This document shows positions 20,512-53,147 of a stretch of 64,000 bases of DNA, in pieces. Position 1 is the stretch's first letter, and each line of letters opens with the position of its first letter. Under the pieces are notes generated by a model. It made no database searches, was not told where the DNA came from, and saw only the letters and a program-made list of their open reading frames with translations. The stretch comes from an uncultured Haloferula sp. (GTDB taxonomy: Bacteria > Verrucomicrobiota > Verrucomicrobiia > Verrucomicrobiales > Akkermansiaceae): positions 384,001 through 448,000 of the forward strand of contig CBFGTS010000001.1 in the NCBI GenBank assembly GCA_965652295.1. The letters are read 5' to 3'. A program made the translations under genes and the position numbers.

Positions 20512-20515
20512 GGGA

Positions 20516-20578: not shown

Positions 20579-21124
20579 TCAGAAGCGGTGGGTTTTGGTG
20601 AGGTGGGCGATGGTGAGTTCGGCGTCCTCGAAGATTTGGTAGGTGTGGGGAAGGACGGCGTCGAATTTGAGCGCATCGCCAGCGGCGAGGGTGTGCTGCT
20701 CGTGGCGGAAGGCGACGTGGACCTTGCCGCGGCGGACCCAGCAGATTTCGTGATCGTCGCCGTGGGCCTCGGGGTGCTGGAGCGAGTCGCCGGCTCGGGC
20801 GGTGGCGTGGAACAGCTCGACGCCTTGGAAGGCGATCTTTTCGAACTGGAACGGTCCGGAGGTATAGCGGGTGGCTTTTTTCCGGTGGGCGGTGGGCGAC
20901 TCGGCGAGGGAAAGCAGGTCCGAGGCGGAGAGTCCGAAGACGCGGGCGAGGCGGTGGAGCGTGGGCAGTTCGACGAGGTTCTGATTGCGCTCAAGCTTCG
21001 AGAGCGAGGCGATCGAGAGGCCGGATTGATCCGAGACCTGCTGCAAGGTCAGTCCGGACTGCTTGCGCAGGTCGCGGATGACGGTGAAGTCGAGAGAGAG
21101 GCTTTCGGAGTCCTGAATGGGCAC
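20579..21124 (-). CDS. XRE-family HTH + cupin transcriptional regulator
   Basis: IRDLRKQSGLTLQQVSDQSGLSIASLSKLERN; cupin H...E..WV..G..., GDALKFDAVLPHTY. Confidence 0.9.
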   Translation of the reverse strand: MPIQDSESLSLDFTVIRDLRKQSGLTLQQVSDQSGLSIASLSKLERNQNLVELPTLHRLARVFGLSASDLLSLAESPTAHRKKATRYTSGPFQFEKIAFQGVELFHATARAGDSLQHPEAHGDDHEICWVRRGKVHVAFRHEQHTLAAGDALKFDAVLPHTYQIFEDAELTIAHLTKTHRF

Positions 21125-28059: not shown

Positions 28060-29364
28060 TCATGACGAGCTCGGATCGTCAGTCGCCGAGCCATGCGTAC
28101 GGGATGCGAGTGATTCGATGGATTCACATGTCTTCGTCATCCAGACGTCCGGTTGGAATCCCTGCGAAACCCGACGCGCGTTCTTGGTAAAGCTGACATG
28201 CTCTTCCAAGCGCTCCAGCGCCGCGGCAATGGGATGGCGGGTGAACTGGTTCGGGTGAAGTCCGATCCCCACTCCAAGATCCCTCACCCGCGAGAGGGTA
28301 TCGAGTTGGTCATGGGCCATCGGTTGAATCAACTGCGGCACCCCGGCCTGCAGGGCTTGGGCGCAGGTGCCGACGCCTCCATGATGAATGATGGCGGCGG
28401 AACGATGCAACAAGGCGCTGAACGGCACATAAGGGAAATGAGCGCAGCCCTCGGGCAGCGTGGCAGGCAGCTGGCTCGCGTCCCGGGTGAGGAAGACGGC
28501 CCGGCGACCGAGCTGCGACACCGCCGCCGCCGCTTCGCGGAAAAACGAGTGTCCCTGGACCATGGCGCTGCCCGCGGTGATCGAAATCGGCGGGGGACCC
28601 GCGGACAGGAAGGCTTCGACTTCGCTTGAGGCGGATCCCTCGTTGGTTTCATCGAACAGAGGAAAGCCGGTCTGCACCGTCTGCGAAGGCCAGTCGGGCT
28701 GGGGAGGCGCGAACCATTCAGGAAACAAGGCGATCACCCGATCCGGAGAATGCCACCATTGCCTGAGCAATCCCTTGGCGGGAGGAAGGCGCAACTCCGA
28801 ACGGAAGCGGTTCAGGGCGGGCAGCGCGTGGTGATCGACGATTGCCGCGGCGATGGACCACTGGAGCGACTTGAGGAACCTCGGTGCTCTGTTGCCAAAG
28901 GGCATGCCATGGATTTCCGGCTGGCGGTGGACGCTGGGAAACAAGGACGGTGCGAGGTGGACGGTGGCCAGGGGGATGCCGAGTACCTCGCAGGCCGTCC
29001 GGGCCGCGAAGGCGAGCGAGCTCGCGACGACCACGGTTTTTCCCGGTACGTGAAGTTCGCGCGTGATCTCGAAGATGGTGGGGTGGCTCGGATTGACCGC
29101 ATGTCGGACGACGGCGGGAAAGGCGCGCCGCGGGTGCCAGAGATCGGGATCGTTCTTCACCCGATCGAAATCCTCCCGCGAGCCAAGCGGTCGAAAGCCC
29201 ATGCCGCGGGTGAGGAGGTCCGTTTCAAAAACCGGGCTCGTCGCCAGGATGACTTCGTGACCCCGTTTCACCAGAGCGGTCCCGATCCCGATGAACGGAT
29301 GGACGTCGCCAGCGCTGCCGAGAGTGAAAATGATGATCCTCAGCGGCCTCACGGAGGAGGTCAT
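28060..29364 (-). CDS. GT1 glycosyltransferase (RhlB rhamnosyltransferase/sterol glucosyltransferase-like)
   Basis: GSAGDVHPF, LFPEWFAPPQPDWP, GFPLFD, IHHGGVGT, PMAHDQ. Confidence 0.88.
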   Translation of the reverse strand: MTSSVRPLRIIIFTLGSAGDVHPFIGIGTALVKRGHEVILATSPVFETDLLTRGMGFRPLGSREDFDRVKNDPDLWHPRRAFPAVVRHAVNPSHPTIFEITRELHVPGKTVVVASSLAFAARTACEVLGIPLATVHLAPSLFPSVHRQPEIHGMPFGNRAPRFLKSLQWSIAAAIVDHHALPALNRFRSELRLPPAKGLLRQWWHSPDRVIALFPEWFAPPQPDWPSQTVQTGFPLFDETNEGSASSEVEAFLSAGPPPISITAGSAMVQGHSFFREAAAAVSQLGRRAVFLTRDASQLPATLPEGCAHFPYVPFSALLHRSAAIIHHGGVGTCAQALQAGVPQLIQPMAHDQLDTLSRVRDLGVGIGLHPNQFTRHPIAAALERLEEHVSFTKNARRVSQGFQPDVWMTKTCESIESLASRTHGSATDDPSSS

Positions 29365-30455
29365 GGTGCGATCTCCATGCCGGGGGCTCCATTCAAGGGA
29401 TTCGACCGGACCATCCTGCCGTCCTCGAATTGGACCCGCTGATCCGCAGGAAGCTCGGGCTCGAAATGATCCGTGCTGATCCACTGGGCACCGCTGTCGA
29501 AGGCTTGCTGCCGCATGGCGGGATCAGGATGGAGGGTGTCGGCGCGGGTTCTCACCATGAAGCCGCCTTCAACGAGCTTCTTGATCTGGTCGAACTGACC
29601 GACCGGGTCATTGCACTTGAACCAAGCGGCGGCGGGGTGGCGGTCGTTCGGCGCGCTGGCAAACATCAGGCGGTTCTCCAGCGCGGCGTTTCCTTCCAGA
29701 TAGTGATCCCGGATCGGGCCGCCTGAGTTATCCAGGGTGAAGATGAACTTTCCACGGGTGGCATCCAACGAGGGCCAGCCGTGGTCCTTGAGCGCTTCCG
29801 GCAGGGATTTTCCGCCTCGTCGCACGTCGTCGGGAAAGAGGATCTTCTTCCTGGGAATGCAGCTGAGGATTTCCTTTTCCAGCTCCATGAGCGTATCGCG
29901 CGTGAACTCTCCGACTCCGGGCGGCGACCCCGGGGTTTTCGCTTCCTTGCATTCGATGAGAATCATCAAGGGCAGGTGATCAGCGTGTTTCTCCGACCAT
30001 GCCGCCATTTCGCGAAGCGCGGAAACCAAGGTGGGGTAGTTGCTCCAGCAATCGACGCCGGGAACGTGCAGCACCTTGAAACCGCGCTTCTGCCATTCTC
30101 CGGTCGGATCGAAAGGCGGCAGCGATTTGCCGGCAGCCTTCGCCAAACCGATCGCGAGAGGCTTGGCGAACATCCCACCTTTCGGGTCGGGGTAGATGTC
30201 CAACTCGAACTGGCGGATCCCGGCGTTGTCGAGCTGGCTTGTCAGGGAGGGCATGGTCTTGCTCCAGGCTTCCACGGCACCCTCGTGGAACCGTCCGATG
30301 AGGCCGAGCACCTCCCGAGGCGGTGCCTTGTGGTAGGAGTTGTGGCTGCCGATGATCTGGATCTGGTTCAATCGCGGAGGCTCATCCTTGGCTCCGGACG
30401 GCGATAGCAAAGCCGCGATGAGAAGGGCTGGAGAAAGGAGTCGGACGAGGCTCAT
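29361..30455 (-). CDS. Secreted Ca-dependent phosphoinositide-specific phospholipase C-like protein (PI-PLC X domain)
   Basis: Signal peptide; LNQIQIIGSHNSYH, GIRQFELD, VLHVPGVD, GFMVRTRAD, SGAQWISTD. Confidence 0.85.
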   Translation of the reverse strand: MSLVRLLSPALLIAALLSPSGAKDEPPRLNQIQIIGSHNSYHKAPPREVLGLIGRFHEGAVEAWSKTMPSLTSQLDNAGIRQFELDIYPDPKGGMFAKPLAIGLAKAAGKSLPPFDPTGEWQKRGFKVLHVPGVDCWSNYPTLVSALREMAAWSEKHADHLPLMILIECKEAKTPGSPPGVGEFTRDTLMELEKEILSCIPRKKILFPDDVRRGGKSLPEALKDHGWPSLDATRGKFIFTLDNSGGPIRDHYLEGNAALENRLMFASAPNDRHPAAAWFKCNDPVGQFDQIKKLVEGGFMVRTRADTLHPDPAMRQQAFDSGAQWISTDHFEPELPADQRVQFEDGRMVRSNPLNGAPGMEIAP

Positions 30456-30516
30456 GGGGTGAGTGTGCCTCCTGCGGTCGCGATGCTTCAATCCGGATTC
30501 GCGGCGAGCCCGGCCA

Positions 30517-31287
30517 TCAGGCCCGCTGCCAGTCGGGTTTGTTGTCGAAAACCCAGCGGTAATAGTCGGCGCGCGCCAATTGCGTCGCGGCGGGATCATC
30601 GAGACAGACTCGAACGGAAGGGTGCATCTGCAGTGCAGAGGCGGGGTTGCTGGCGCTGATCGGACCCTCGACGGCTCCGGCGATCGCCTCGGCCTTCTTT
30701 TCGCTGAAGGCGAGGAGGAGGATCTCACGGGCTTCCATGATCGTGCCGATGCCCATGGTGATGACATGCCGTGGCACGGTCTCGCCGGGCGCGAAAAACC
30801 GGGAGTTGTCCTCACAGGTTCGCCGGGTGAGCGTCTTGATCCGGGTGCGTGAGGCAAGCGAGGAAGAGGGTTCGTTGAAACCGATGTGACCGTCGGTTCC
30901 GATCCCCAGAACCTGGAGGTCGATCCCCCCCGCGGCCGCGATCTGTTCTTCGTATCGTTGGCAGAACGACGGAATGTCGTCGGCCTGGCCGTCGGGGATG
31001 TGGACATTTTCTTTCCGGATGTTGATACGGCCAAAAAGATGAGCCTCCATGAAGGAGTGATAACTCTGCGGGTGATCGACGGATAAGCCGATGTACTCGT
31101 CGAGGTTGAACGTCGTGACGTGCTGCCAGTCGAGATTCATGGCGACCAGCTCACGATAGAGGGCTATTGGGGTGCTGCCGGTGGCCAGGCCCAGCACGGC
31201 GTCCGGCTTTCGCCGGATGAGGTCGGCGATGAGGCGCGCTCCGATGACGGCGGCTTCCGCAGCGGTCGGTTGGATGATGATTTCCAT
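30517..31287 (-). CDS. nagB: Glucosamine-6-phosphate deaminase
   Basis: VLGLATGSTP, TFNLDEY, LGIGTDGHIGFNEP, ITMGIGTI, PASALQMH. Confidence 0.95.
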   Translation of the reverse strand: MEIIIQPTAAEAAVIGARLIADLIRRKPDAVLGLATGSTPIALYRELVAMNLDWQHVTTFNLDEYIGLSVDHPQSYHSFMEAHLFGRINIRKENVHIPDGQADDIPSFCQRYEEQIAAAGGIDLQVLGIGTDGHIGFNEPSSSLASRTRIKTLTRRTCEDNSRFFAPGETVPRHVITMGIGTIMEAREILLLAFSEKKAEAIAGAVEGPISASNPASALQMHPSVRVCLDDPAATQLARADYYRWVFDNKPDWQRA

Positions 31288-32141
31288 CAGGATCCGAGGC
31301 GCTGGGTGAGGCGGGATTTCACATCCTGCTGGAAGGCCGCGATGTGATCGCAAACGAAGCCGACGATATCCGTGGTGTCGTCGACGATGAGGGGCGTGAG
31401 GTCCATGCCGAAGATGAGCTGCGTGGAGGTGTCCGAGGCATGGGATTCGAAGAAGGTGGCATTCGCAGCCCGGCGGCCGAGGGTGGCGAGATCATAGCGC
31501 TTTCCCCCGGCGATCTGGGAGTCGAAGACGCCGTTGAGTGCGGCGGCGAGGTTGTCACGACCGCTGACATCCATGAGGACCTTGGCTTCATCAGGGAGCC
31601 AATCGAGATTACGCCAGACTTCGCAACCGATCACCTGGGAGGGCCGCTTTTCCGGTGCGAGGGAACGGACGGCCTGGAGGGTGGCGACGGTGACGCCAAT
31701 GTGGGTGTCGTGCTTGTCGGCGGGATTGTGGGTGTAGACGACCTTGGGCGTGGCAGCTTCGAGGATGGAAACGAGATCTTCCTTCAGGGAAGCATCGGCG
31801 GCGTCCTTGATGGTCTTGCTGGAGTGGTCGAGTTGAATCATGACGCCGTAGGCTCCGATGGTGGCGGCGGTCTTTTGCTCGCAGCGTCGGACCTGCATCA
31901 TGTCGGCATCGCTATAAGTCGCGTAGGGACCGGTGCGGGAGCTGCCGGCACCGTTGCTGCAGGTCACTCCGCCGAACCATTGGTCGTCGCGCGAGATGCA
32001 GGCCAGTATCCCGTGGAAGGCCATGAATTCCAGATCGTCCTGATGCGCGCCGATGCCGAGATGAGTGATGCGGGCGAGGGCGTCGGGCAACGGTGTGGCA
32101 TCGGGAACGAAGACGTCCGCAGTTGGTTGATGGAATTTCAT
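31287..32141 (-). CDS. PIG-L/LmbE family deacetylase
   Basis: GAHQDDLE, R..EQ..AA, THNPADKHDTH, FDSQI. Confidence 0.88.
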   Translation of the reverse strand: MKFHQPTADVFVPDATPLPDALARITHLGIGAHQDDLEFMAFHGILACISRDDQWFGGVTCSNGAGSSRTGPYATYSDADMMQVRRCEQKTAATIGAYGVMIQLDHSSKTIKDAADASLKEDLVSILEAATPKVVYTHNPADKHDTHIGVTVATLQAVRSLAPEKRPSQVIGCEVWRNLDWLPDEAKVLMDVSGRDNLAAALNGVFDSQIAGGKRYDLATLGRRAANATFFESHASDTSTQLIFGMDLTPLIVDDTTDIVGFVCDHIAAFQQDVKSRLTQRLGS

Positions 32142-32147
32142 GGCAGG

Positions 32148-33527
32148 TCAGGAAGTCGACTCGGGCAGGCTCGCAGCGGCGACAGCCTGACCGACGCGGC
32201 GGGATTTTTCATCGGGAACATGCAGGGTGATTCGGTCGGCAAGTTCCGGGAACTCCATTGCGAGTACCTCGCGGGCTTTGTCGATGACGATCCCGCCGCC
32301 GTCCCCGGTCGTCACCCGCCCGAGAACGAGCAGATGATCGAAATCATAGAAGTGGGCATAGTGAGGCAGGGTATAGCCGAGATAGACGCCGATGGTTTCA
32401 TAGATGCGGGCCGCCCGTTCGTCACCTTCGGCCATGAGTTTCTGAACCTCCACGAGGCGCTCGGGCAGTCCCATTTTGGAAGGTAGAGTGATCTTTGCGG
32501 CGGGAAGCAGCTTGTTGACGGCTTGCTGCGAGAAGTAGAGGGCACCGGTGCCGATGTCGCCCGACCATTCGTCGCGCGCGGCGTCGGGGTTGTAGTCGAC
32601 CGCAGCAAAGGCAAGTTCGTTCAGCCAGCCGAGGATGCGTCCCTTCTTGTCCATGAAACCCGCGGCCTCACTGGAGCCCATGGCGATCCCGAGCATGCCG
32701 ATTTTTTGAAGGGAAAGAGCACCGGCGAGCGCGGTGACATCGCCGTCGTTCATCACGACGAGCGGCACCTTCCATTCGTCCTGGATGCGTTTGAAAAGGT
32801 TGGAAGCGACGGAGAAGGAGTCGCTCGGAATGGACCGGAGCAGTGAGGCGACGCGGATCTCGTTGTCGACGATCACCCCGGCAGAGCTGCCGCCGATGGC
32901 ATCGACTCTGGGCATGGCGGCGGCGGCGCGATGCAGCGCGGCGGAGAGGTGATGATAGTGGTATTCCGGGTCGGCCTGAGCGGTCGGATCCCACGGGGTT
33001 TCCCAGGTGAAGACCGGCTCGCCATCGACCACGGCGGAGACCTTGTAGTCGCTGGCACCGAGATCGAAGCCGATCCGGCATCCTTTCAGGTGGCCGCCGA
33101 CTCCAGCCTGCATTTCCCGCTCGGACGGGGCGTGATCCGCGGTGGTGAGCTCGACTTCGAATGGCCGTCCATACGAGCGCTCCATCATGTCGCAGTCGAA
33201 GCGGCGGGCTCCATGGGACGAGTAGGTTTCCTTCAAATGCCGGCCGATCCGCTCGGGGCCGCCGACGATGAGCTTCCATCCGCCGCGCGACCAGAGGAGG
33301 AATTTCGCGAGTCGCTCCACGAAGTGCAGGGTCTCCGCATCGGGCGTAGATCGGACCATGGTCTCGTAGCGGGAAACGAGGCCGTTCTCGCGTTCCAGCG
33401 CGAGCACGAGCGGGACGGCATCGCCGGCGGATCGTGTGGCCGTGAGGTAGTTTCGATGAAAAAGCGCCGCGGGCAGGAAGCCTGGATCGAGCGGTGCGGG
33501 GATGGCGAGTGAGGTGGAATGGGTCAT
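32148..33527 (-). CDS. ROK family sugar kinase with long N-terminal extension
   Basis: IGFDLGAS, MNDGDVTALA, GIAMGSSEAAG; ATGA overlap with the MFS gene. Confidence 0.85.
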   Translation of the reverse strand: MTHSTSLAIPAPLDPGFLPAALFHRNYLTATRSAGDAVPLVLALERENGLVSRYETMVRSTPDAETLHFVERLAKFLLWSRGGWKLIVGGPERIGRHLKETYSSHGARRFDCDMMERSYGRPFEVELTTADHAPSEREMQAGVGGHLKGCRIGFDLGASDYKVSAVVDGEPVFTWETPWDPTAQADPEYHYHHLSAALHRAAAAMPRVDAIGGSSAGVIVDNEIRVASLLRSIPSDSFSVASNLFKRIQDEWKVPLVVMNDGDVTALAGALSLQKIGMLGIAMGSSEAAGFMDKKGRILGWLNELAFAAVDYNPDAARDEWSGDIGTGALYFSQQAVNKLLPAAKITLPSKMGLPERLVEVQKLMAEGDERAARIYETIGVYLGYTLPHYAHFYDFDHLLVLGRVTTGDGGGIVIDKAREVLAMEFPELADRITLHVPDEKSRRVGQAVAAASLPESTS

Positions 33528-35341
33528 GACGAATGGCGTTTGCGGCTCTTTCCGGTGAAGTGCTCTTCGATCTCTTCGAGGGTCTTGCCTTTGGTCTCCG
33601 GGAGGAAGAACGCGGCGGTCACGAAATAGACCACCGTGCAGGCGGCCCAGCCGAAGAACATCGTGGAGTATCCGAATTTTCCAACGGTTGGGAGGAAGGT
33701 TCCGGCGATGGCTGTGGAAACGGCCTGGTTCACGAGGAGGGCGACGGACATGCCGTTGGATCGGATGCGGGTGGGCATGAGCTCGGAAAGTGCCAGCCAC
33801 ACGCAGACACCCGGTCCGGAGGCGAAGGCGGCGATGAACAGGATGAAACAGCCGGCAACGAGCCAGCCGGTGGAGGGATTCGGCAAAGCTCCGTATTTCA
33901 CGCTGATGATTTCCAGAGGTTGGCTCTCCGCCGGTCGAAGATCCGTGAAAGGATTGAGGTGGAGCTTCCGGAAGAATGCGCCGATCGGCCCGTCCTTGAG
34001 ATCGGCCGCGGAGGGCGGTGTGATGTCGATCGTCGCCGGAGCGTGCGAGCCGACGAGGTCGCGCACATATTTCATCTGCGTGTACGGACCGTAGCGATAG
34101 GACACCAGCATCTGCGTTCCGTAAGGAGCGGAGTCGTGCGAAACCGCGGCGTGGAGAACCGGCTGAAGATCCGGATTGTCGAGATCGATATGAAAACTTC
34201 GAGCGGCAGCATCGATCGATTGCGATAACGCCGAAGATAGGTCGATCCGCTCCGACTCGATATGGCGGAAGGTCATCGCGGCTCCGACCAAGGCGACGAG
34301 GATGCCGGCGGTGCCCATTTTCAGAAGGAAGGTGCGGCCTTTCCGATCGACGAGGGCGACGGCCACCACGGTCATGAGGCAGTTGACGAGGGTGAGCAGA
34401 ACGTTGCCCTGATTGGCGACCGATCCTGTCAGGCCTGCCTGTTGGAAAATGTTGACGGCGTAGGCGAAGACCGAGTTGACCCCGGTGGCCTGGGTGCAGG
34501 CGAGGACCACGACGGCGAGGATGAAGGGGACGACGTATTTGCGTTGCCAAAGGCTGTCGCGGATGGCCTGGGTGGTGCGGGTGGACACGGCCTCGTTGCG
34601 CTCCATTTCATCGAGGACGACGCGGGCCTGATCGATGCCGGTGGATCGGGCCAAGGCAGCCAGCGCGGCGTCCTTGCGGCCCTTTCGAAAGAGCCAGCGA
34701 GGCGATTCTGAGACGGCCGCGGAGCCCGCGAAAAACAGGAGACCGGGAAAGAGCGACACCCAGAAGATCTGGCGCCACGCCTGGTCCTTTGCGGTGAGAA
34801 CAACGTCGGAGGTGGTGCCGGGTGTCGCCTCGAGTCGTCCAACCTTGTTGGCGAAGTAGAGCCCAATCAAGGCGGAGGCCACCAGGCCCACAGTGAGTAA
34901 AAGCTGGAACATGCCCGTCCCCTTGCCGCGCGACTTCGCGCCGAGGCACTCCGCCAGATAAAGAGGCACGACGACGCCGATAAGACCGCCGCTGATTCCC
35001 TGGAGGAGCCGCCCCGCGATGAGCACGTGGATCCCCTGGGAAAGGGTGATGATAGGAATGCTCAACACGAACAAGAGCGCACTGAGCATCATGATCTTCC
35101 GCCGCCCGAAAATGTCGGCCAGCAGTCCGGCCACGAGCGAAGAGAAGACACTCCCTAACAGCACGGCCGCGACTACGGTCGATAGCTGCGAGGGAGTGTA
35201 GCCGGAGGTCGCTTCAAGATAGGGAAGGGCGCCGGCGATGATGCCGACATCGATGCCGTAGAGCAGCCCGCCAAGGCCGGCCACGAGGAGGAGGAATCGG
35301 CCGTAAGTGGACGACGACCGAGGGACGGAAATCTCCGACAT
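33524..35341 (-). CDS. Sugar-porter family MFS transporter with a large loop between TM9 and TM10
   Basis: GGLLYGIDVG, D.FGRR, YLAE, SESPRWL, QATGVN, DRKGR, SELMP..IRS, PETKGKTLEEIE. Confidence 0.92.
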   Translation of the reverse strand: MSEISVPRSSSTYGRFLLLVAGLGGLLYGIDVGIIAGALPYLEATSGYTPSQLSTVVAAVLLGSVFSSLVAGLLADIFGRRKIMMLSALLFVLSIPIITLSQGIHVLIAGRLLQGISGGLIGVVVPLYLAECLGAKSRGKGTGMFQLLLTVGLVASALIGLYFANKVGRLEATPGTTSDVVLTAKDQAWRQIFWVSLFPGLLFFAGSAAVSESPRWLFRKGRKDAALAALARSTGIDQARVVLDEMERNEAVSTRTTQAIRDSLWQRKYVVPFILAVVVLACTQATGVNSVFAYAVNIFQQAGLTGSVANQGNVLLTLVNCLMTVVAVALVDRKGRTFLLKMGTAGILVALVGAAMTFRHIESERIDLSSALSQSIDAAARSFHIDLDNPDLQPVLHAAVSHDSAPYGTQMLVSYRYGPYTQMKYVRDLVGSHAPATIDITPPSAADLKDGPIGAFFRKLHLNPFTDLRPAESQPLEIISVKYGALPNPSTGWLVAGCFILFIAAFASGPGVCVWLALSELMPTRIRSNGMSVALLVNQAVSTAIAGTFLPTVGKFGYSTMFFGWAACTVVYFVTAAFFLPETKGKTLEEIEEHFTGKSRKRHSS

Positions 35342-35380
35342 GATGTAGGGCGAAAAGCAGGGGGGAAGCCGTGCGTGTCG

Positions 35381-37879
35381 TCAGGGTTGGACCGGTTCCG
35401 TGACGGAGAGGCGGGCGAAGCGCCGCGATCTGGTCGCGGGGATCGTCACGGTGACCTGCTCGGTCTCGGCATCGACCACTTCCACAGCAACTGTGACTCC
35501 GTCCACGTCGTTCACCGCAGTGGTCCAGCTTCCCTCCCTGAGATCGTCGGAGAACTCGACGCGATCGACGAAGCCCTCGGCCGAGGCCTCAAGTTCACGC
35601 TGATAAACCAGCACCAGTGTTTCATCGACTCGATCGACGGTTGGAAGATTGGAGCCGGCTCCGGAGACTGGGCTGGAACCCAGGACGAACTCGATCGAAT
35701 TGGCCAGACCGTCGCCATCCGGATCCGCCGTCGGACTGCCATTGCTTTCCGAGTCGAGACCGAAGCCCGCGGCCCATTCATCATAACCGGTGAGCTCGGG
35801 GGCAGCCTCGAAGAGATCGACGATGTTTCCGGTCGTCAGCTCGCGGCTGTAGATCCGGAGGTCATCGAGAAATCCCTCGAAACCCTCGAAGGCGGTCGAG
35901 CGGCCCAGCGCTCCAATGGCGAAACCGACGGTGCTCGCTTCATTGATCCCCGAGGTGTTGGTGTTCTGGGAGTGAACGAGGACGCCATCGACATAGAAGT
36001 CGACTCGGTTCACCGGGCTGTTCCGGAAGATATAAGAATAGTGACGCCATGATCCAGGCAGGGGTGTGGTGTCAGCCGGGCTCAGATAATCGTAGACTCC
36101 ATAGCTGGTTCCCACCATCTGACGGGTCGCGGAGCGTTGTCCCACTCCCCAACCTTCGGTGAGCGTGGCAGCGCCATTGGCATAGGCGGAAAAGAACCTC
36201 GTTCTCGCAGCTGTGGCGGTGGTTGGCACGCGCGCCCAGCAGGCGACGGTAAAGCCATCGCTGTCGGAGAGAAGACTCGTGGTGTAATCCACACCTGATG
36301 TAACTCCGAGGTCGACCAGGTCTCCCGTTCCATCGAGGAGCAAGGCTCCTGCGCCGACTCGTGCCATGGCGCTCCATTGGGCATCGCCCATCGGCGTGCC
36401 GTCGTTCGCAAAGGATCCGGTGTCCTCCCCAAGTTCGGCGGCATCATCGAAGGTAAAGAGGGACACGAGGCTTGCGTCCGGGTTGGCTACTTTAACCTCG
36501 GCCGTGACGGGAATCGAAAAGAGGAACTCGCCGTCGCTGTTGGTATCGATCACCAACGTGCCGGTGAAGGTGCCCTCGCTCCCGGGAGGAGGGCTGAATG
36601 TGACCTCCACGTCGACGCTTTGACCCGGAAGTACGGTGGAGGATGCGGGGTCGTTGGCTGTGAAGGCTGGGTCGCCGGTGAACTCGACGTCATAAAGGAT
36701 GAGATCATTTTCGGTGCCATTGTTGGTGATGGTGACGGTCTGCGTCTGAGAGGTCGGGCTTTCATCGAAGCTGCCGAAGTCGATCGAAAGAGGATCGACT
36801 GCGGCGACCGGATCCATGGCCTCGACGTTCACCATGACCTCGATCTCCTTAACCGGCTCCAGCGAGTCATTGGTGGCCACGGAAAGCGTGACGGTGTAGA
36901 GCCCGGAGATGTCCGGATCGAAGTTGAGCGTGATGACTCCGGAAGCGCCGGGAGCGAGATCGTCGTCATAGGATACCACCTCGAAGAAGCTGGCATCGAA
37001 GCCGCTGATGGTGATGGGATCGGGATCGGTGAGGCTGAGGGTTTGCGTGGCACCGAGGTTGGAGAATGGGACCTGGAGGGTCTGCGGGTCTCCGCCGGTA
37101 TCGAACGTGATGGCAGGCTCGAGCTGGAGGGACGGATCTCCCACAGGCAGGTCGGCGAGGATGGCGATTTCGCCGGAGAGGAGAACGGTGTCGTAGATGC
37201 GGAGCTCATCAATCGAGCCCTCGAAAGCGTCCGTGGGAGCACTGCGTCCGAGGCGACCGACTTCGAAATTGTTGAAAATTGAGGGCAAGGTCACCGCTGG
37301 GGTGCCTTCCGTTCGTGAGATGAGAGTTCCGTCGATGTAGAGCTGCGCGACGTCGTTTGCGGCGTCGAGAGTGTAAGCCACGTGGTGCCACTCTCCGTCA
37401 TTCAATGGCGAGGGCGGGAGAGGATTCAGATCGGAGAAGCCGGTGTTCACTCCATCGCGGATCCGACCGTAAATGCCGCCGGTACCGGAAGCGGTTCCGA
37501 CATCCAGGTAGCGGTTGCTGGCCGTGTCGTCCCCGAGGAAAATCGCGGAGTCTCGGGTGCCTCCGGCGGCCCACTTGAGCCACGCGGAAATGGTAAGCGT
37601 CTGGTTCGTGGAGATCGCACTGAAGAGCGGGCTGGCGTTCCCCATGTCGACGACGCCGTTCTGGCTCGCATCATTTTGAAAGGTGAAGGCGGTCCCGAAC
37701 TTGCCTGCCGTGCCGAGGATGACATTTGAACCGATCGTGCCATCGAGGCCTGCGGGTCCGCTATCGACGGCAGTGGTGCCGCTGGTTTCGTCAAAAGTAT
37801 AATGAGAGACCAAGTCGGCGTGGGCGTAAAGAAGCCCGAGACTTGATGCTGCGAAAATAGAAGTGAGTGAATGATTCAT
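35381..37879 (-). CDS. Secreted protein: LamG domain, two ASH/Ig-like domains, second LamG domain, DGDG-type C-terminal domain
   Basis: WHHVAY..LYIDG..DELRIY twice; IDFGS..TQTVTITNNG..DL..V.PGQS..V.V.FSP; C-terminal Y..W..DPDGDGLAN..E..RFARLSV. Confidence 0.88.
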   Translation of the reverse strand: MNHSLTSIFAASSLGLLYAHADLVSHYTFDETSGTTAVDSGPAGLDGTIGSNVILGTAGKFGTAFTFQNDASQNGVVDMGNASPLFSAISTNQTLTISAWLKWAAGGTRDSAIFLGDDTASNRYLDVGTASGTGGIYGRIRDGVNTGFSDLNPLPPSPLNDGEWHHVAYTLDAANDVAQLYIDGTLISRTEGTPAVTLPSIFNNFEVGRLGRSAPTDAFEGSIDELRIYDTVLLSGEIAILADLPVGDPSLQLEPAITFDTGGDPQTLQVPFSNLGATQTLSLTDPDPITISGFDASFFEVVSYDDDLAPGASGVITLNFDPDISGLYTVTLSVATNDSLEPVKEIEVMVNVEAMDPVAAVDPLSIDFGSFDESPTSQTQTVTITNNGTENDLILYDVEFTGDPAFTANDPASSTVLPGQSVDVEVTFSPPPGSEGTFTGTLVIDTNSDGEFLFSIPVTAEVKVANPDASLVSLFTFDDAAELGEDTGSFANDGTPMGDAQWSAMARVGAGALLLDGTGDLVDLGVTSGVDYTTSLLSDSDGFTVACWARVPTTATAARTRFFSAYANGAATLTEGWGVGQRSATRQMVGTSYGVYDYLSPADTTPLPGSWRHYSYIFRNSPVNRVDFYVDGVLVHSQNTNTSGINEASTVGFAIGALGRSTAFEGFEGFLDDLRIYSRELTTGNIVDLFEAAPELTGYDEWAAGFGLDSESNGSPTADPDGDGLANSIEFVLGSSPVSGAGSNLPTVDRVDETLVLVYQRELEASAEGFVDRVEFSDDLREGSWTTAVNDVDGVTVAVEVVDAETEQVTVTIPATRSRRFARLSVTEPVQP

Positions 37880-37973
37880 CTGGAGATAGCTATGATGTTG
37901 CCACGTGTTTCGAGCGCAGCCCCCTTTCAAGGAAGGGGCGTGGATTGACTGAGGATGCCGTTCAGCAGCGGGT

Positions 37974-38780
37974 TCAGCGGCGTCGCCGAAGGACGAGGCC
38001 GAGGGCTCCGAGAAGTCCGAGAGCCAGCGGGGTGGCGGGCTCGGGCACGGCCAAGGCCGCGATCTCGCTTTCTGTCAGGATGGTATCGTAGATGCGGAGT
38101 TCGTCCACAGAGCCTGTGAACGCATCCGTGGGAGCGCTCCGGCCGAGACGGCCGACTTCGAAGTTATTGAAGACGGATGGGAAGGTGACGGCGGGAATTG
38201 CCGTGCTTTCCGACACGAGTTGGCCATCGACGTAGAGGCGAGTCACTTCGTTGACAGCGTCCGCGGTGTAGGCGATGTGATGCCATCCGCCGTCATTCAG
38301 TGCCAGAGTCGGAGTCGGAGTGAGGTCGGGAAATCCGGAGTTCACTCCATCGCGAATCCGGCCGTAAACGCCGGTGGTGCCGGCCATGGTCCCGATGTCG
38401 AGATATCGGTTCGATGCAGTGTTGTCTCCAAGAAAGATGGCCGAATCCCGTACGCCTGGAGTGGTCCAACTCATCCAGACGGAAACCGTGATTGCCTGGC
38501 TGGTGGTGATCGCACTGAAGAGGTCGGTGGCATTTCCCATGTCGACGATGCCGTCCTGGCTGGCATCGTTGTTGAAGGTGAAGGCCGTGCCGAACACTCC
38601 GGGCGTGGCCAGGGTCACGTTTGAACCAATGACTCCATCGGCTCCTGCGGGGCCGCTGTCAACGGCGGTGCCGCCGGTCGACTCGTCAAAGGTGTAACGG
38701 GAAACCAAGGCCGCGCGGGCCGGAAGGAAGAGGGCGAGGACCAGCAAACTGTGCGCCGCGAGAAATGAGGGAGTCTTCAT
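37974..38780 (-). CDS. LamG-domain PEP-CTERM protein
   Basis: Signal peptide, LamG motifs, C-terminal VPEPATPLALGLLGALGLVLRRRR. Confidence 0.92.
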   Translation of the reverse strand: MKTPSFLAAHSLLVLALFLPARAALVSRYTFDESTGGTAVDSGPAGADGVIGSNVTLATPGVFGTAFTFNNDASQDGIVDMGNATDLFSAITTSQAITVSVWMSWTTPGVRDSAIFLGDNTASNRYLDIGTMAGTTGVYGRIRDGVNSGFPDLTPTPTLALNDGGWHHIAYTADAVNEVTRLYVDGQLVSESTAIPAVTFPSVFNNFEVGRLGRSAPTDAFTGSVDELRIYDTILTESEIAALAVPEPATPLALGLLGALGLVLRRRR

Positions 38781-38878
38781 GATGGAACGGTTTGGGATAA
38801 GTCAGACGAGTGAAGAAGAAGGCCTGCTTCTTCATCGATCTCTGCCCGGCGGAGTTCGTTCCACTGGCTGACTTTCCT

Positions 38879-38906
38879 TCTATTCCCCGTTCCCAAAGAT
38901 GCTGAC
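38879..38906 (-). promoter_or_regulatory. Putative ECF-sigma promoter (GTCAG-N16-GAATAGA)
   Basis: Same bipartite motif and spacing as 43261-43288; about 100 bp upstream of the LamG PEP-CTERM gene. Confidence 0.6.
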
Positions 38907-38914
38907 GGATTTTT

Positions 38915-40405
38915 TTACTCCACGGGTTCTTTGGTCGCGTTGTCGTACTGGTTGCTGGTGAAGATGAGCGTTTCCGGATCGCGCAGCACGTGGCGCTCGA
39001 TGAGATCCTTTTTGGGAAGCGTGACGTTCAGCACGCCGTTCTCCACCCACCACTGGCTTCGGGTCCAGGAGCTGTCGACGACTTCGCCGTTTTTCGTCAG
39101 GGACACCGTTCCATCGGGCCGGAATTCGCGGACGAAGAGATCGCCGAGATGGCGGTAAGCCCAGCGGCCGATGAACTGATCGGGGCGGGCGTTGGTGACG
39201 AGACCTTCTTCGAACTGGAGAATTCCACGGCTGTCGAGTGGCAGGTCCGAATCAGCAAGGGAGCCGCCCTCGCGGCTCAGGGTCTCAAGGGTGGCCACGA
39301 CCGTCCAGCGACCGCGGCTGTAGGAACCGGGTTCGACGTCCAGAGCGTAAATGTTGTCGGAAACATAGCGCAGCATGCCGGTGCTTCCCTTGTGGGCGTC
39401 CACCGCGACCGGCTCCCCGTCGTGAAGAAGCCGCACGTCGCGGATCACGACGGCATCGGGCCCGCTGATCCATTTGAAGATGGCCCGATACTTCGCGGGT
39501 TTCCAGACGAGGTGGGTGACATCGAAGGTGACTTCCCGCGATCCTGATGAGTCGACCTCCCAGCGGAAGTCCCTTGCCGGCAGCCGCGTCACGTATTTCT
39601 TGCGATCGAGCGGGATGGGCTGCAGCGGCTCACCGCCCACCGGGGACTGGACGAGCGATTGGTTTTCGTAAAGCAGGATGGAGTCCCGTCCGGCCGAGTG
39701 CAGTTTGATCATGCCGGAAAATACGCCGACTTCCGTACTTCCGTCGGGAAGCGCGTCCATCGCGAACTCGGTTCCGAGATCCTCGACGATGCCTCCCGAG
39801 TAGTGGATTTTGAATCCTTCGGCCCCTTTTGGCACGGTCGTGTAGAGCTTTCCCTGCTGCAGCCGTCCGGTCTCATGCCCGGCGACTTCGTAAACGGCGG
39901 GGCCTTCCAAGGTGACACACACGCCGCTGGCGTAGGTGACTTCGACGAGACCCGACTCGATGGATATTTCGCTGGAAGATGGATCCAACTCGATCCGGTG
40001 CGGGCTTTTTTCATCGGTCCACTCGACGCCCACCATGCCGGTGATGCGGGCGGGTGGCGAACTGGGGGGAGCGGCGGCGATGGAATCGGTGGACGGTGGT
40101 TCAAGGTTTCTGCCGAGCTGGAGTCCGAGGCCGAAAATCACGCAGGCAGCAACGAGAGAAGCGCCGATCGTGAGCGCGCGCGGAAATGAAACGACACGCG
40201 GTGGCTCCGCGGAGAAATCGTCCTCCTGCGGAACGACCGAGGCCATCAAGGCTTCCTGCTGGCTGGCCTCAAGGTAGTAGGCGAGGGCCGCATTGTCTTC
40301 CAACAGGTCCTCCAGCTCGGCCACTTCCGGCTTTGATAGTGGTGGCCCGTCGTGCAGGCGGTCGACCAGCCTTCGGAGTCTGGGATGAGGTGGACGGTTA
40401 TTCAT
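38915..40405 (-). CDS. FecR-like anti-sigma factor with C-terminal beta-sandwich domain
   Basis: N-terminal helical anti-sigma region, one TM helix, SGLVEV...V.LEGPA, VP.GAEGF, VEDLGTEF, V..G; overlaps the sigma gene. Confidence 0.88.
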   Translation of the reverse strand: MNNRPPHPRLRRLVDRLHDGPPLSKPEVAELEDLLEDNAALAYYLEASQQEALMASVVPQEDDFSAEPPRVVSFPRALTIGASLVAACVIFGLGLQLGRNLEPPSTDSIAAAPPSSPPARITGMVGVEWTDEKSPHRIELDPSSSEISIESGLVEVTYASGVCVTLEGPAVYEVAGHETGRLQQGKLYTTVPKGAEGFKIHYSGGIVEDLGTEFAMDALPDGSTEVGVFSGMIKLHSAGRDSILLYENQSLVQSPVGGEPLQPIPLDRKKYVTRLPARDFRWEVDSSGSREVTFDVTHLVWKPAKYRAIFKWISGPDAVVIRDVRLLHDGEPVAVDAHKGSTGMLRYVSDNIYALDVEPGSYSRGRWTVVATLETLSREGGSLADSDLPLDSRGILQFEEGLVTNARPDQFIGRWAYRHLGDLFVREFRPDGTVSLTKNGEVVDSSWTRSQWWVENGVLNVTLPKKDLIERHVLRDPETLIFTSNQYDNATKEPVE

Positions 40406-40952
40406 GGGTGGATGAAAGTCGGGACTCGATACAATGGCGGAGGGCGATCCGGATCCGCGACAGGCTCTTCTGGATTTGATTCGGCTTCACGCCAAGCTTC
40501 CGCGCGTGGGCTGCGAGCGAAAGGCGGTCATGATATTTCAACTGCAGCAGCTTTCGGCTATCCGCCGGGAGCTGGGACACGCAGTGCTGGAGCGCGGCGA
40601 GCCGGTGGTCCGCCTCGTCGGCCATGGCTTCAGCCGCCCGGGAGATGCGCTCAAGGACATCCTCGGAAAAACATACCAGCTTGCGACGCTGCATGTCGCG
40701 TCGGTGGGTCAGCACCTTGAACCACGCGGCTTTGAAGGCCCATGCCTTGAAGTTGGTGCCGGATTGGAACTCGGCCCGCCGGTCCCAGAGAAACAAACAA
40801 GTCTCCTGCACCACGTCATCGCAGGCATTGCGATCGGGCAGGAGGGAGAGGATGTATCCCCGCAGTGCAGGTCGCAGGTCTTCGATTTGCGAAGCGACAA
40901 GGCCGTCCCGATCGGAGGGATCGGGCTCGAATTGCGGCTCGGGACTCATCAT
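40398..40952 (-). CDS. ECF sigma-70 factor (Rhodopirellula/Verrucomicrobium type)
   Basis: LRGYILSL, DDVVQET, F..GTNFKAWA, L..CV.QL, LSRIRIALRHC. Confidence 0.92.
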   Translation of the reverse strand: MMSPEPQFEPDPSDRDGLVASQIEDLRPALRGYILSLLPDRNACDDVVQETCLFLWDRRAEFQSGTNFKAWAFKAAWFKVLTHRRDMQRRKLVCFSEDVLERISRAAEAMADEADHRLAALQHCVSQLPADSRKLLQLKYHDRLSLAAHARKLGVKPNQIQKSLSRIRIALRHCIESRLSSTHE

Positions 40953-40974
40953 CGGGTGGAACGTTGGAGGACGG

Positions 40975-43209
40975 CTATTCAAGGTCGTGAATTTCAAGCG
41001 GCTTGGTCGGGCCATCGACCTTCGCGGCGCTCGCAGCATATTTATCCCAGATCATCCGGGCCGCAGTGACGGGATCGCCTTCCGCCCCCTCGGCATAGGA
41101 TTTCCAGGAGTGAATCCATTTCTCGGTGAAGTCCCGGATCTCGTCATTCATCGAGAGCTTTTCTCCGCGGCGAATCGACTGATGGGCGGCATCGAGGAAA
41201 AGCTTCCACACCTCCAGATTGTAGTCGGCCATCAATCCGCCGTACTGCCGCTGGGCGTAGCCAAAGAGGGGGCTCTTTCGATCGCCCCAGAGCGTGATGA
41301 TGCGTCGGGCATTGCGCTCCCATCGGGCTTTGCCTTCGGTGGTCCGGCTGGCTCCCAGAGGATACTTCAAATAGTTCCCGAACTGGAAGATTGCATGAGT
41401 GCGCAGGAGCGTGTCGCAGTCGACGATGGCCTCGCAGTAGGCATCCGCCGCTCGTTTGAACCGGCGGGCGTCCTTGCTTTTGTAGGCTTCCCGCAGTTCG
41501 GTGTGAAGCTGCTGTTGGGCGATGTCCGACATCACCTGTCTGCCGACATCGACGAGATCGAAGTGATAGGTGTCGCGCCCGGCGAGCTCGGTGGAGGCTT
41601 CCAGCAGCAAACGGAATGCCTCGCGGACTTTGGAACTGTCATAGAAGATCGATCCGCGGACGAAGCCTTCGCCGTCCTTGGCGAGCGTGGGCGGCATGGC
41701 GAGGAAGTTGCCTTGCGGGCCGTGACGCTTGTCGTCGCACTCATAAACCGTTTCTGCCAGGATCTTCCATGCCGAGATGGCGGATTCGTTCCGGATGCCA
41801 TATCGTCCCCAGACGAATTCCTCAACCCATTCATCGAGATCCACGGGTTGATCCCGCCATGCCATTTCATAGATCTGCTCATAAACGATGGGATTGTTTT
41901 CTCCTCCTTCGTTCAGTGTGCCGATCCCTGACAAACGGCCTGCCTCGGGTTTGCCGAGCAGCTGCGGCATCTTCACGCCGACTTCGGTCAAGCGTCCATA
42001 CATGCCCTGCTTGCCGCCCCAGTTGTTGATGATGCACCAGAGCCAGGGTTTCCCGGCGAAAGCGCCGGTGTGGTCCCACTGGGGTTTACCGTCGGCGAAC
42101 AAATCGAGGAGGACCATCTGATCGTCGCCCACGCCGGAGAGCAGCGCTTCGATCCGCGGCTGGGTCCAGAAGCGGCTGTGGACAAACAACCAGCCTTGCA
42201 TGAACCAGATCGCTTCCGGGTCGGCCTCGGCCATGGATTGATAGACGGCCCGAGTCATGCCCCGGAGATAATCGGGATCATCGGTCGGAGGATCGACTTC
42301 ATTGAAGGTATCGGCCGAATAGAGATGGGCGGTGCCGTAGAGCTTGGTCGACTCGGTGACGAAGCGGGATCCGATCTTCCGGAACAGCGGATCGGAAGGA
42401 TCGAGCACGTGGATGCCGGGGAAGTTGCTCCAGTTCTTCAGCTTGGCGATCTTGGCCCCGGGGAACTTGTCCTTGAGGCCGGGCGGCACGTGGCCTCCGA
42501 AGGCCGGAAGTACCGGCTTCATGCCGAGCTCCATGGCGCGGGTCATGATGCTCTTTTGCAGCGATTCCTGGCGGTCATACCACTCGTCGGGATTCGGGCC
42601 ACCCCAGCCGTCGATGTTTCCCATGAGAAACCAGGGCAGGAAGGGTGGGGCGGCGATGAAGTCGTCGATGTCCTTCTGCGGCAGGCCGAGGTCACGATAG
42701 ACGTTGCGATAGACGACCTCGGCCCCCGTGGCCATGAGCGGCGTGTTGATGCCGTGCAGGGCCATCAGGTCGATTTCCCGTTCCCAGCGTGGTCCGTCCC
42801 AGAAGGCCATGGTGTAGCCGTAGGTGCAGTAGTTGAAGGCGTAGCGGTAGGGGTACGGGGACACCTTGCGGATCTTTTCCGACAGCTTCGGAAGGGGATC
42901 GGGAAGGGAGATCTGATCACCGCACCAGGAGATGTCACAGCGGCAGTGGTATTTTAGATACCAGTTCAGCGCCGAGGCCATCGAGACGGCGTTGTTGCCG
43001 CGGAGCACGATTTTCCCTCCGCGCGACTCGATCTCGAACACGTCGTTTCCGCCCTCCGCTGGGATCGTTTCGCAAACAAATCCGGCCGACTTGCCTGGGA
43101 GCACCCGCTGGATGAGGGCGGTGGCGGCTTCTTCGGGCGTGGGCGCGGCGATGGCGGGAAAAAAGCTGAAGGCGAGAAGGGCGATGAGAAGAGGTTTCAG
43201 GGATTTCAT
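40975..43209 (-). CDS. Alpha-N-acetylglucosaminidase, GH89
   Basis: YAFNYCTYGYTMAFWD..RWEREID.MALHGIN, MGNIDGWGGP, PVLPAFGGHVP, DTFNE, W.MQGWLF, NARRIITLWG. Confidence 0.93.
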   Translation of the reverse strand: MKSLKPLLIALLAFSFFPAIAAPTPEEAATALIQRVLPGKSAGFVCETIPAEGGNDVFEIESRGGKIVLRGNNAVSMASALNWYLKYHCRCDISWCGDQISLPDPLPKLSEKIRKVSPYPYRYAFNYCTYGYTMAFWDGPRWEREIDLMALHGINTPLMATGAEVVYRNVYRDLGLPQKDIDDFIAAPPFLPWFLMGNIDGWGGPNPDEWYDRQESLQKSIMTRAMELGMKPVLPAFGGHVPPGLKDKFPGAKIAKLKNWSNFPGIHVLDPSDPLFRKIGSRFVTESTKLYGTAHLYSADTFNEVDPPTDDPDYLRGMTRAVYQSMAEADPEAIWFMQGWLFVHSRFWTQPRIEALLSGVGDDQMVLLDLFADGKPQWDHTGAFAGKPWLWCIINNWGGKQGMYGRLTEVGVKMPQLLGKPEAGRLSGIGTLNEGGENNPIVYEQIYEMAWRDQPVDLDEWVEEFVWGRYGIRNESAISAWKILAETVYECDDKRHGPQGNFLAMPPTLAKDGEGFVRGSIFYDSSKVREAFRLLLEASTELAGRDTYHFDLVDVGRQVMSDIAQQQLHTELREAYKSKDARRFKRAADAYCEAIVDCDTLLRTHAIFQFGNYLKYPLGASRTTEGKARWERNARRIITLWGDRKSPLFGYAQRQYGGLMADYNLEVWKLFLDAAHQSIRRGEKLSMNDEIRDFTEKWIHSWKSYAEGAEGDPVTAARMIWDKYAASAAKVDGPTKPLEIHDLE

Positions 43210-43260
43210 GGGCAAAGGAGGCGGGGCGCGTCAGTCGCGTCCGAAAGTTCGCGAGATCGC

Positions 43261-43288
43261 TCTATTCCAATCCGGATCGGAACCGGAC
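43261..43288 (-). promoter_or_regulatory. Putative ECF-sigma promoter (GTCCG-N16-GAATAGA)
   Basis: Matches 38879-38906; about 50 bp upstream of the GH89 start. Confidence 0.6.
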
Positions 43289-52016: not shown

Positions 52017-53147
52017 ATGAAAGTCCGGATCGAGAACGCGCATCTGATTTCGCCCGGATGGGAGATCCCGGACGGCGAACTGTGGATCGAGGACGGCCGG
52101 ATCGTCGCTGCTTCAACGGATCGGGCGGATGAAATCATCGACGCCGGAGGGCGGATCGTGGTGCCGGGGTTCATCGACATCCACAGCCACGGCGCGGATG
52201 GCCGCGACGTAGGCGATGACGACCTGGAAGCCATCCGCCACATCGCGCGGCGCAAGCTTCAGGAGGGCGTGACGACCTGGCTGCCGACGACGCTGACCCA
52301 GTCGCGCGAAAAGCTGCGGAGCATCGCGGCAAAAGTGGCAGCCTACGCGGCGAGTCCGGATTTCACCCGTTGCCCGGGCCTCCACGTCGAGGGTCCGTTC
52401 ATTTCCCGTGAAATGGCCGGGGCGCAGAATCCGGAGTTCGTGCGCCTTCCAGATGTGGAGGAGCTGCGCGAGCTGCTGGAAACCTGCCCGGTAAGCGTGC
52501 TCTCGTTGGCTCCGGAGCTGCCGGGAGCGCTGGAAATGATCCGCTGGGCGAGCGAGCGGGGAATCGTCTGTTCGGCCGCGCATACCCGGGCCGGCTTCGC
52601 CGACATCGAGGCGGCGCGGCAGGCGGGGTTGCGGCATTTGACCCATTTCGCGAATGCGATGACGCCGCTGCACCACCGCGAGATCGGGGTGGTCGGGGCC
52701 GGCTTGCTCAACGAGGGGCTGATGCTCGAATTCATTCCCGACGGTGTCCACCTGAGCCCGGAGATGCTGCGGTTGCTCGTCAAGGTGGTGCCGATCGAGC
52801 GGCTGATGATGATCACCGATTCGATGGCGGGTTCGTGGATCGGCGAGGGCGAGGTGAAGCTCGGCGGTCTCGACGTGGTGGTGAAAGACGGCACCGCGCG
52901 CCTCAAGGAAGGCGGGGCGCTGGCCGGGTCCGTGCTGCGTTTCAACGAGGGCCTGCGGATCCTGGCGACGACGACTGGATTGCCGCTTTCTCGGCTGGTC
53001 GCGGCGACGTCCTGGAATCAGGCGCGATCGCTCGGCTTGGCTGACTTTGGGAAACTGGAGTCCGGTTTCCATGCCGACCTGGTAATTCTGAACGACGACT
53101 TGTCCGTGTGGAGGACCTTGGTGGGAGGAAAGGTGGCGGTGGAATGA
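52017..53147 (+). CDS. nagA: N-acetylglucosamine-6-phosphate deacetylase
   Basis: PGFIDIHSHG, HVEGPF, LAPE, THFANAM, DGVH, ITDSM, LAGS. Confidence 0.93.
   Translation: MKVRIENAHLISPGWEIPDGELWIEDGRIVAASTDRADEIIDAGGRIVVPGFIDIHSHGADGRDVGDDDLEAIRHIARRKLQEGVTTWLPTTLTQSREKLRSIAAKVAAYAASPDFTRCPGLHVEGPFISREMAGAQNPEFVRLPDVEELRELLETCPVSVLSLAPELPGALEMIRWASERGIVCSAAHTRAGFADIEAARQAGLRHLTHFANAMTPLHHREIGVVGAGLLNEGLMLEFIPDGVHLSPEMLRLLVKVVPIERLMMITDSMAGSWIGEGEVKLGGLDVVVKDGTARLKEGGALAGSVLRFNEGLRILATTTGLPLSRLVAATSWNQARSLGLADFGKLESGFHADLVILNDDLSVWRTLVGGKVAVE

Follow-up and report, generated by a model that had tools for sequence, protein, structure and literature searches.

A two-module gene cluster for probable alpha-GlcNAc foraging and catabolism in an uncultured Haloferula sp., with a PIG-L-type deacetylase in the slot of NagA

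Introduction

Polysaccharide utilization loci (PULs) of Bacteroidota carry extracytoplasmic function (ECF) sigma/anti-sigma genes and SusC/D, and bacterial nag clusters consist of nagK (encoding a ROK-type kinase), nagA and nagB together with a transporter gene. The catabolic pathway of N-acetylglucosamine (GlcNAc) is outlined in a section of PMC5583593, and a passage of PMC13198582 counts nagB-PIGL among the amino-sugar degrading genes. Here we describe a locus of eleven genes in a 64,000-nucleotide stretch of DNA (the window; positions 384,001 to 448,000 of contig CBFGTS010000001.1, assembly GCA_965652295.1) from an uncultured Haloferula sp. of the Akkermansiaceae (Verrucomicrobiota). The locus encodes, in order, a GH89 alpha-N-acetylglucosaminidase, an ECF sigma factor, an anti-sigma factor, two LamG proteins, a sugar porter of the major facilitator superfamily (MFS), a ROK-like kinase, a PIG-L-type deacetylase, NagB, a phospholipase C with specificity for phosphatidylinositol (PI-PLC) and a GT1-like glycosyltransferase (GT1). 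A sequence-only reading had taken the whole run as a candidate system for scavenging glycosylinositol phosphorylceramides (GIPCs) or glycosylphosphatidylinositol (GPI). We propose, with a probability of about 0.78, that it is an alpha-GlcNAc foraging and catabolism cluster of two modules, and that PI-PLC and GT1 are unrelated neighbours.

Results

Two modules in one run

All eleven open reading frames (ORFs) are intact, full length and co-oriented on the minus strand, from window position 43209 to 28060 (Table 1). The sequence-only reading had described eleven co-oriented genes, several of them overlapping, without sulfatase, lyase or SusC/D. Both points held: 4 of the 10 junctions overlap (-8, -4, -1 and -4), and sulfatase, lyase and SusC/D were all unmatched in a Pfam scan of the locus proteins. 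The remaining six junctions have gaps of 22, 134, 94, 39, 6 and 61 bp. The GC content at third codon positions is even along the run (0.71-0.78), so composition marks no boundary in it. Named homologues are mostly from Verrucomicrobiota (Luteolibacter, Akkermansiaceae and others), and a single tblastn match in the window genome was obtained for each of GH89, ROK, PIG-L, nagB, PI-PLC and GT1. Judged from the gene orders in related genomes, the locus is a mosaic in which a GH89–ECF–anti-sigma–LamG module adjoins an MFS–ROK–PIG-L–nagB cassette.

The MFS–ROK–PIG-L–nagB cassette is widespread in Verrucomicrobiota

PIG-L homologues were found in 39 of the 150 genomes sampled from the family. Around these 39 loci there were ROK at 34, nagB at 16 and GH89 at 1, with PI-PLC and GT1 at none. 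A second set comprised the 80 best of 484 confirmed PIG-L loci from GTDB, a few of which are also contigs of family-sample genomes and 60 of which had at least 3 kb downstream. Near PIG-L in these 80 loci we found nagB (68), ROK (60), MFS (26) and GH89 (5, one of them a mere 56-aa fragment), and again neither PI-PLC nor GT1 (0 each). PIG-L typically immediately precedes nagB and often immediately follows ROK. The cassette is widespread in the phylum.

Individual loci showed the cassette in a setting of N-acetylhexosamine (HexNAc) genes. In genome G166 the order is LacI-MFS-ROK-PIG-L-nagB-GH109, with MFS to nagB arranged as in the window at 47-75% identity and with PI-PLC and GT1 unmatched. G127 has nagB-ROK-PIG-L-symporter-APH kinase-GH109 with GH89 and GH20 nearby, and G030 has GH20, GH20, nagB, ROK, symporter and GH89. 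Among 60 ORFs from 16 hand-picked, part-scanned GTDB loci, the recurring companions were GH20, GH109, APH-type kinases, epimerases and GH29, and these point to a general HexNAc salvage setting. GH89 thus associates repeatedly with this type of cassette, in 5 of the 80 GTDB loci and in G127 and G030, and the part of the sequence-only reading that concerned the release, uptake and catabolism of alpha-GlcNAc is supported.

The ROK-like protein is divergent. Pfam and NCBIfam gave no match to it, and a profile search against the PDB returned three weak matches, all ROK-type (E 0.23-0.48); phmmer searches of PIG-L and ROK against the PDB produced no useful match. We infer that it is a GlcNAc or glucosamine (GlcN) kinase. 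In a quickly built tree with 60 ROK sequences, the window protein grouped with cassette ROKs of several families (SH-aLRT 100), separate from a clade of 11 genus members. This topology fits a cassette that is mobile or has been retained patchily. The protein also has an N-terminal extension of about 140 aa.

PIG-L and nagA nearly exclude each other

The PIG-L protein conserves the motifs AHQDD and DKH and lacks a signal peptide. It has the features of carbohydrate esterase family 14 (CE14), namely PF02585, the HxDD plus distal His metal motif and a Rossmann-type fold. Its predicted model (predicted local distance difference test score, pLDDT, 69) matched BC1534, chitobiose deacetylases (Dac), BshB and MshB alike (TM about 0.5, 13-20% identity), and the modelled CE14-type fold does not favour MshB. 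A canonical nagA, overlooked in the sequence-only reading, is located in the window 9 kb from the cluster on the opposite strand; the deacetylase slot in the cluster is taken by PIG-L. The gene preceding nagA encodes a CDP-alcohol phosphatidyltransferase (window 51382-53147 for the two, plus strand).

We compared the distribution of the two deacetylase genes. In the family sample, with nagA called over the TIGR00221 cut-off, nagA was present in 0/39 genomes with PIG-L versus 80/111 of the others. In the phylum sample, with nagA called at E 1e-60, the corresponding figures were 10/99 and 158/231. Within genus g1, 4 of the 15 genomes lack nagA, and these are exactly the 4 with PIG-L. The exclusion was likewise seen inside genera g5 and g15 and in family f15, where 1 of 5 genomes has PIG-L and 4 have nagA. 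A further check of five genomes gave two with PIG-L only, two with nagA only and one with neither. Other amidohydrolases were present in five PIG-L genomes subjected to a broad amidohydrolase search, a result that does not discriminate.

Because PIG-L and nagA nearly exclude each other, PIG-L is a probable deacetylase of GlcNAc or GlcNAc-6-P, and the exclusion combined with the position before nagB makes displacement of NagA the simplest reading. PIG-L is probably a NagA substitute by non-orthologous displacement. The alternative assignment as a GlcNAc-inositol deacetylase is the less convincing of the two.

The GH89 module and its regulators

The GH89 protein matched 4xwh (E 7e-147) and 2vc9 (E 3e-100) in the PDB. 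It carries both glutamate motifs (E304 and E434), with DTFNE and LNEGG aligned to the NAGLU motifs; we take these glutamates to be the catalytic residues. Genome G119 keeps GH89-ECF-anti-sigma-LamG at 59-76% identity in the same gene order (ECF sigma 73%, anti-sigma 70%, two-LamG protein 59%), with unrelated flanks and the rest of the run missing there. Several further copies of ECF, anti-sigma and LamG homologues occur elsewhere in the window genome.

Right after the anti-sigma stop codon, a bipartite motif is common to the window and G119 (L091:5582). It was derived from these two intergenic regions themselves; it has one copy in the genome, and among the fetched loci only G119 has a match. 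We consider it a candidate promoter for the TIGR02989-family ECF sigma factor. A sigma-70 promoter and terminator scan was uninformative: it called no promoter-like site, and its 15 terminator-like sites compare with 13.0 expected.

Similar ECF/anti-sigma pairs lie near more distant GH89 genes of G076, G090, G145 and G166 (L097, L098, L099 and L143), which suggests a recurring GH89-linked regulator. About 80-110 aa of the periplasmic part of the anti-sigma factor match either a C-terminal extension that longer GH89 proteins have or ORFs close by (L223:12860-15400, L206:1420-3933 and L215:5625-5906); the shared stretch is possibly a sugar-binding domain.

PI-PLC and GT1 have other usual neighbours

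The PI-PLC is a genuine PF16670 member. Residues H38, N39, R81, E84, D86, H130 and E168 are invariant in 19 homologues, and its model (pLDDT 86.6) had 5fyr as the top Foldseek match (E 1.2e-14). PF16670 was present in 26/150 family genomes, in 20/34 genus genomes and in 2/390 phylum genomes, both of the window genus; the family and genus samples overlap. GT1 was also found in 20/34 genus genomes.

The sequence-only reading had proposed synteny of PI-PLC and GT1 with the nag genes in relatives as a check, and the outcome was negative throughout. We examined 48 PI-PLC loci, comprising the flanking regions of every one of the 37 distinct genome matches and 11 metagenome loci, 41 of which had at least 1 kb on each side. 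At E 1e-3, none of the 48 contained GH89, MFS, ROK, PIG-L, nagB, nagA or GT1. Weak matches to ECF, anti-sigma or LamG paralogs in 4/48 loci were set aside, as these are large paralogous families. Reciprocally, a PI-PLC profile that detected its positive control gave 0 matches in 155 PIG-L, ROK or GH89 loci. PI-PLC and GT1 are both present in 16 genus genomes and adjacent in 0/16: in 14 they lie on different contigs, and in two closed chromosomes they are 381 kb and more than 1.5 Mb apart.

Each gene has other company. In 14 of the 18 close loci examined, PI-PLC is divergent from a gene for an 839-874 aa protein (e.g. L022:10615-13206), with a C-terminal cytochrome c domain in all 3 scanned; this protein of about 860 aa is the real conserved neighbour of PI-PLC across the genus. 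GT1 comes before chorismate synthase in 4/9 close loci and is 190-650 kb from the resident ROK in G143, G119, G151, G161 and G057. Apparent GT1–ROK links in G037 (6 kb) and G076 (14 kb) were rejected, the genes being on opposite strands with unrelated genes between. Across the 150 family genomes, PI-PLC does not co-occur beyond chance with PIG-L (8 observed, 6.8 expected) or GH89 (4 observed, 4.9 expected). PI-PLC and GT1 are single-copy, genus-common genes with other usual neighbours, and neither is a conserved part of the cluster.

Based on a rough gene caller, 13% of the 2157 co-oriented gene pairs in the genome overlap, 52% are no more than 61 bp apart, and 10 same-strand runs comprise at least 11 genes. 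Co-orientation of eleven genes is not exceptional for this genome.

Surrounding genes

The run extends beyond GT1, with a gap of 49 bp, a gene for a protein of 2242 aa, and then more minus-strand genes. About 280 aa in the interior of this protein are similar, below the cut-off, to the type IV pilus outer-membrane protein of the Amuc_1098 family, and two stretches paralogous to them occur in the genome. Farther on, window 16227-21124 (minus strand) encodes a helix-turn-helix–cupin regulator, a weak GH88-like protein, a xylose-isomerase-like barrel, a Gfo/Idh/MocA oxidoreductase and a short-chain dehydrogenase/reductase. These genes appear to form a separate sugar-oxidation operon; a relation to inositol catabolism is possible, judged from Pfam only.

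Table 1. Features of the locus and of nearby window DNA
Feature	Window position	Strand	Evidence or remark
GH89 alpha-N-acetylglucosaminidase, 744 aa	40975..43209	-	Pfam NAGLU_N/NAGLU/NAGLU_C; signal-peptide-like N-terminus
ECF sigma factor, Rhodopirellula/Verrucomicrobium family	40398..40952	-	TIGR02989 over cut-off
FecR-type anti-sigma factor	38915..40405	-	Pfam FecR, E 5.8e-5
Candidate ECF promoter, bipartite motif	38881..38905	-	common to G119
LamG (concanavalin-like) PEP-CTERM surface protein, 268 aa	37974..38780	-	Pfam Laminin_G_3, PEP-CTERM
Secreted protein of 832 aa with two LamG domains and choice-of-anchor D Ig domains	35381..37879	-	Pfam; NF012200
Sugar porter family MFS transporter	33524..35341	-	TIGR00879 over cut-off
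ROK-like sugar kinase, divergent	32148..33527	-	motifs and weak ROK profile matches
Stand-alone cytoplasmic PIG-L/LmbE (CE14-type) deacetylase	31287..32141	-	PF02585
nagB, glucosamine-6-phosphate deaminase	30517..31287	-	TIGR00502, 295.7 bits (cut-off 236.9)
Secreted Ca-dependent-type PI-PLC (PI-PLC-C1, PF16670), 364 aa	29361..30455	-	Pfam E 8e-94
GT1-like glycosyltransferase, 434 aa	28060..29364	-	PDB matches GtfD/GtfB, sterol glucosyltransferase
Secreted-looking protein, 2242 aa	21282-28010	-	Pfam unmatched; 49 bp after GT1
Canonical nagA	52017..53147	+	TIGR00221 over cut-off; outside cluster

Discussion

In the scheme that we propose, for which all enzyme activities, the regulation and the substrate of the cluster are predicted, the exported GH89 would remove terminal alpha-GlcNAc from a glycan. 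The ECF sigma/anti-sigma pair probably senses this glycan and activates the genes of the LamG surface proteins and those behind them. The sugar porter would bring in GlcNAc, and the ROK-like kinase, PIG-L and NagB would convert it into fructose-6-phosphate, acetate and ammonia, with PIG-L in the role of NagA, either on GlcNAc-6-P or on free GlcNAc ahead of phosphorylation. PI-PLC and GT1 would be genus-resident genes that a rearrangement within this lineage moved beside nagB; they would belong to no conserved pathway, although their transcription by read-through is possible.

The linkage preference of GH89, GlcNAc-alpha1,4-Gal versus GlcNAc-alpha1,4-glucuronic acid (GlcA), is not readable from these data. 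Heparosan and alpha-GlcNAc-capped mucin had been named as alternative substrates in the sequence-only reading; because GH20 and heparinase II/III were unmatched in the genome, both are weakened as full substrates. A further candidate substrate class is that of bacterial exopolysaccharides containing GlcNAc-alpha1,4-Gal, which a Luteolibacter isolate degrades (PMC13750104).

Several observations weigh against parts of our reading. PI-PLC starts 61 bp after nagB and overlaps GT1 by 4 bp, and no terminator-like site was called from nagB to GT1, in a scan that was near chance overall; co-transcription of nagB, PI-PLC and GT1 is plausible on account of the short gap, the overlap and the lack of a called terminator-like site. 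PI-PLC and GT1 also co-occur above chance in the genus (16/20, Fisher p 0.005) and in the family (9/11), which speaks slightly for a link, though they are unlinked and the genomes are close kin. The ROK-like gene is present in 29/34 genus genomes, also without PIG-L. Both nagA and PIG-L occur, unusually, in the window genome, and also in 10 genomes of the phylum sample, and 13/39 PIG-L genomes have a partial nagA-like gene below the cut-off (E 1e-41 to 1e-48), which is also present, as a second copy, in genomes with nagA. The genomes are related, which inflates the statistics, and the p-values overstate the associations. The short gaps and the 4-bp overlap, the lack of a terminator-like call between nagB and GT1 and the candidate ECF promoter that lies upstream of the LamG genes would suit a young, lineage-specific operon, with the rearranged PI-PLC and GT1 kept under the ECF promoter and co-regulated for different substrates; the rationale would be a cell that encounters inositol lipids along with alpha-GlcNAc glycans, in eukaryotic membrane debris. 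Such an arrangement was seen in one genome only, however, gene overlaps and long runs on one strand are frequent in this genome, and the run continues into unrelated genes, and we hold this explanation to be quite unlikely. PIG-L might instead have another cytoplasmic substrate, such as chitobiose, GlcNAc-malate or GlcNAc-inositol from thiol turnover, or GalNAc-phosphate, the nagA exclusion then being lineage history and not replacement. The fold matches to BC1534/BshB, Dac and MshB do not discriminate among these, GH109 (an alpha-GalNAcase family) is a frequent neighbour, and the 11 genomes with both genes would be accommodated; but the exclusion persists inside g1, g5, g15 and f15, and PIG-L lies mostly right before nagB and often right after ROK, and we hold this alternative to be unlikely.

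The dedicated GIPC/GPI system of the sequence-only reading, in which PI-PLC cleaves the lipid, GH89 strips alpha-GlcNAc and GT1 reglycosylates the lipid, seems to us highly improbable. The tight, co-oriented genes and the GH67 alpha-glucuronidase encoded elsewhere in the genome (contig C13) speak for it, as do the unmatched GH20 and heparinase II/III, which leave the GH89 substrate open. A canonical PI-PLC attacks via the inositol 2-OH in a cyclic-phosphate mechanism, and the GlcN of mature GPI is non-acetylated and internal, hence not an end for GH89. According to excerpts of the sources cited, GIPCs with HexNAc on O-4 of GlcA exist (PMC12498067, PMC11496612), and Bt3590, a Bacteroides GH89, cuts GlcNAc-alpha1,4-GlcA (PMC8225759). 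The same kind of excerpts places GlcA on inositol O-2 in plant GIPC, as GlcA-alpha1,2-inositol (PMC12498067), describes how a 2-O substituent on inositol makes GPI resistant to Bacillus cereus PI-PLC (PMC10761859), and shows a fungal GIPC-PLC, that of Botrytis, annotated as a sphingomyelinase (PMC11496612). Removal of GlcNAc by GH89 and then of GlcA by GH67 before PI-PLC acts is conceivable. For iolD and iolE, nothing exceeded the cut-off in this 98% complete genome, with control matches in 3 and 2 genomes; a KduI/IolB-type match (C8:86274-86951) may be either of the two. A ceramidase search left the genome unmatched, and the control genomes as well. PIG-L lacks a signal peptide and tracks nagB. 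PI-PLC and GT1 show no synteny with the GH89 and nag genes, and PI-PLC shows no excess co-occurrence with GH89 or PIG-L; the proposed coupling to lipid scavenging is not supported. If true, the claim would amount to a bacterial route dedicated to the headgroups of plant sphingolipids; the comparative evidence does not bear it out.

Returning to the alpha-GlcNAc cluster, we lean towards the broader view that a stand-alone PIG-L and a divergent ROK-like partner replace NagA in much of Verrucomicrobiota (99/330 sampled genomes), possibly in a deacetylate-then-phosphorylate order. No description of such a displacement by a stand-alone PIG-L was found in the full-text literature searched, a body that leaves most subscription journals outside its coverage. 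Many Verrucomicrobiota genomes without nagA would be scored as non-catabolisers of GlcNAc, though their PIG-L adjoins ROK and nagB. If the replacement is real, an annotation gap would close for a phylum abundant in soil and freshwater, and the CE14 family would gain a new activity.

Compared to Bacteroidota PULs, the locus similarly sets a hydrolase and ECF regulation beside surface proteins of glycan-binding type and catabolic genes, but it has no TonB-dependent receptor pair. The missing SusC/D is not special to this locus, because ECF, anti-sigma and LamG homologues recur elsewhere in the genome. The window GH89 shares the three-domain core and both catalytic glutamates with human NAGLU, CpGH89 and Bt3590, and differs from them in having no appended carbohydrate-binding modules. 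The PI-PLC has PF16670, the same barrel and the HNSY and RQFELD motifs in common with the Ca-dependent enzymes of Pseudomonas sp. (5fyo/5fyr) and Streptomyces antibioticus (3h4w), at 15-17% identity in structural alignment. NagB–PIG-L fusions (NCBIfam PRK02122) likewise tie PIG-L to NagB in amino-sugar catabolism, and foreshadow such a role for PIG-L; here PIG-L is a separate gene, and since PRK02122 was unmatched at E 1e-4 it belongs to a different subfamily. As in nag clusters, a transporter, a putative ROK-type kinase and NagB are encoded in one run with linked hexosaminidases, whereas the kinase diverges too far to match the ROK model of Pfam, and a Rossmann-fold enzyme of the PIG-L/LmbE type stands where the amidohydrolase NagA would be. 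The cluster is of a known type, varied in its deacetylase.

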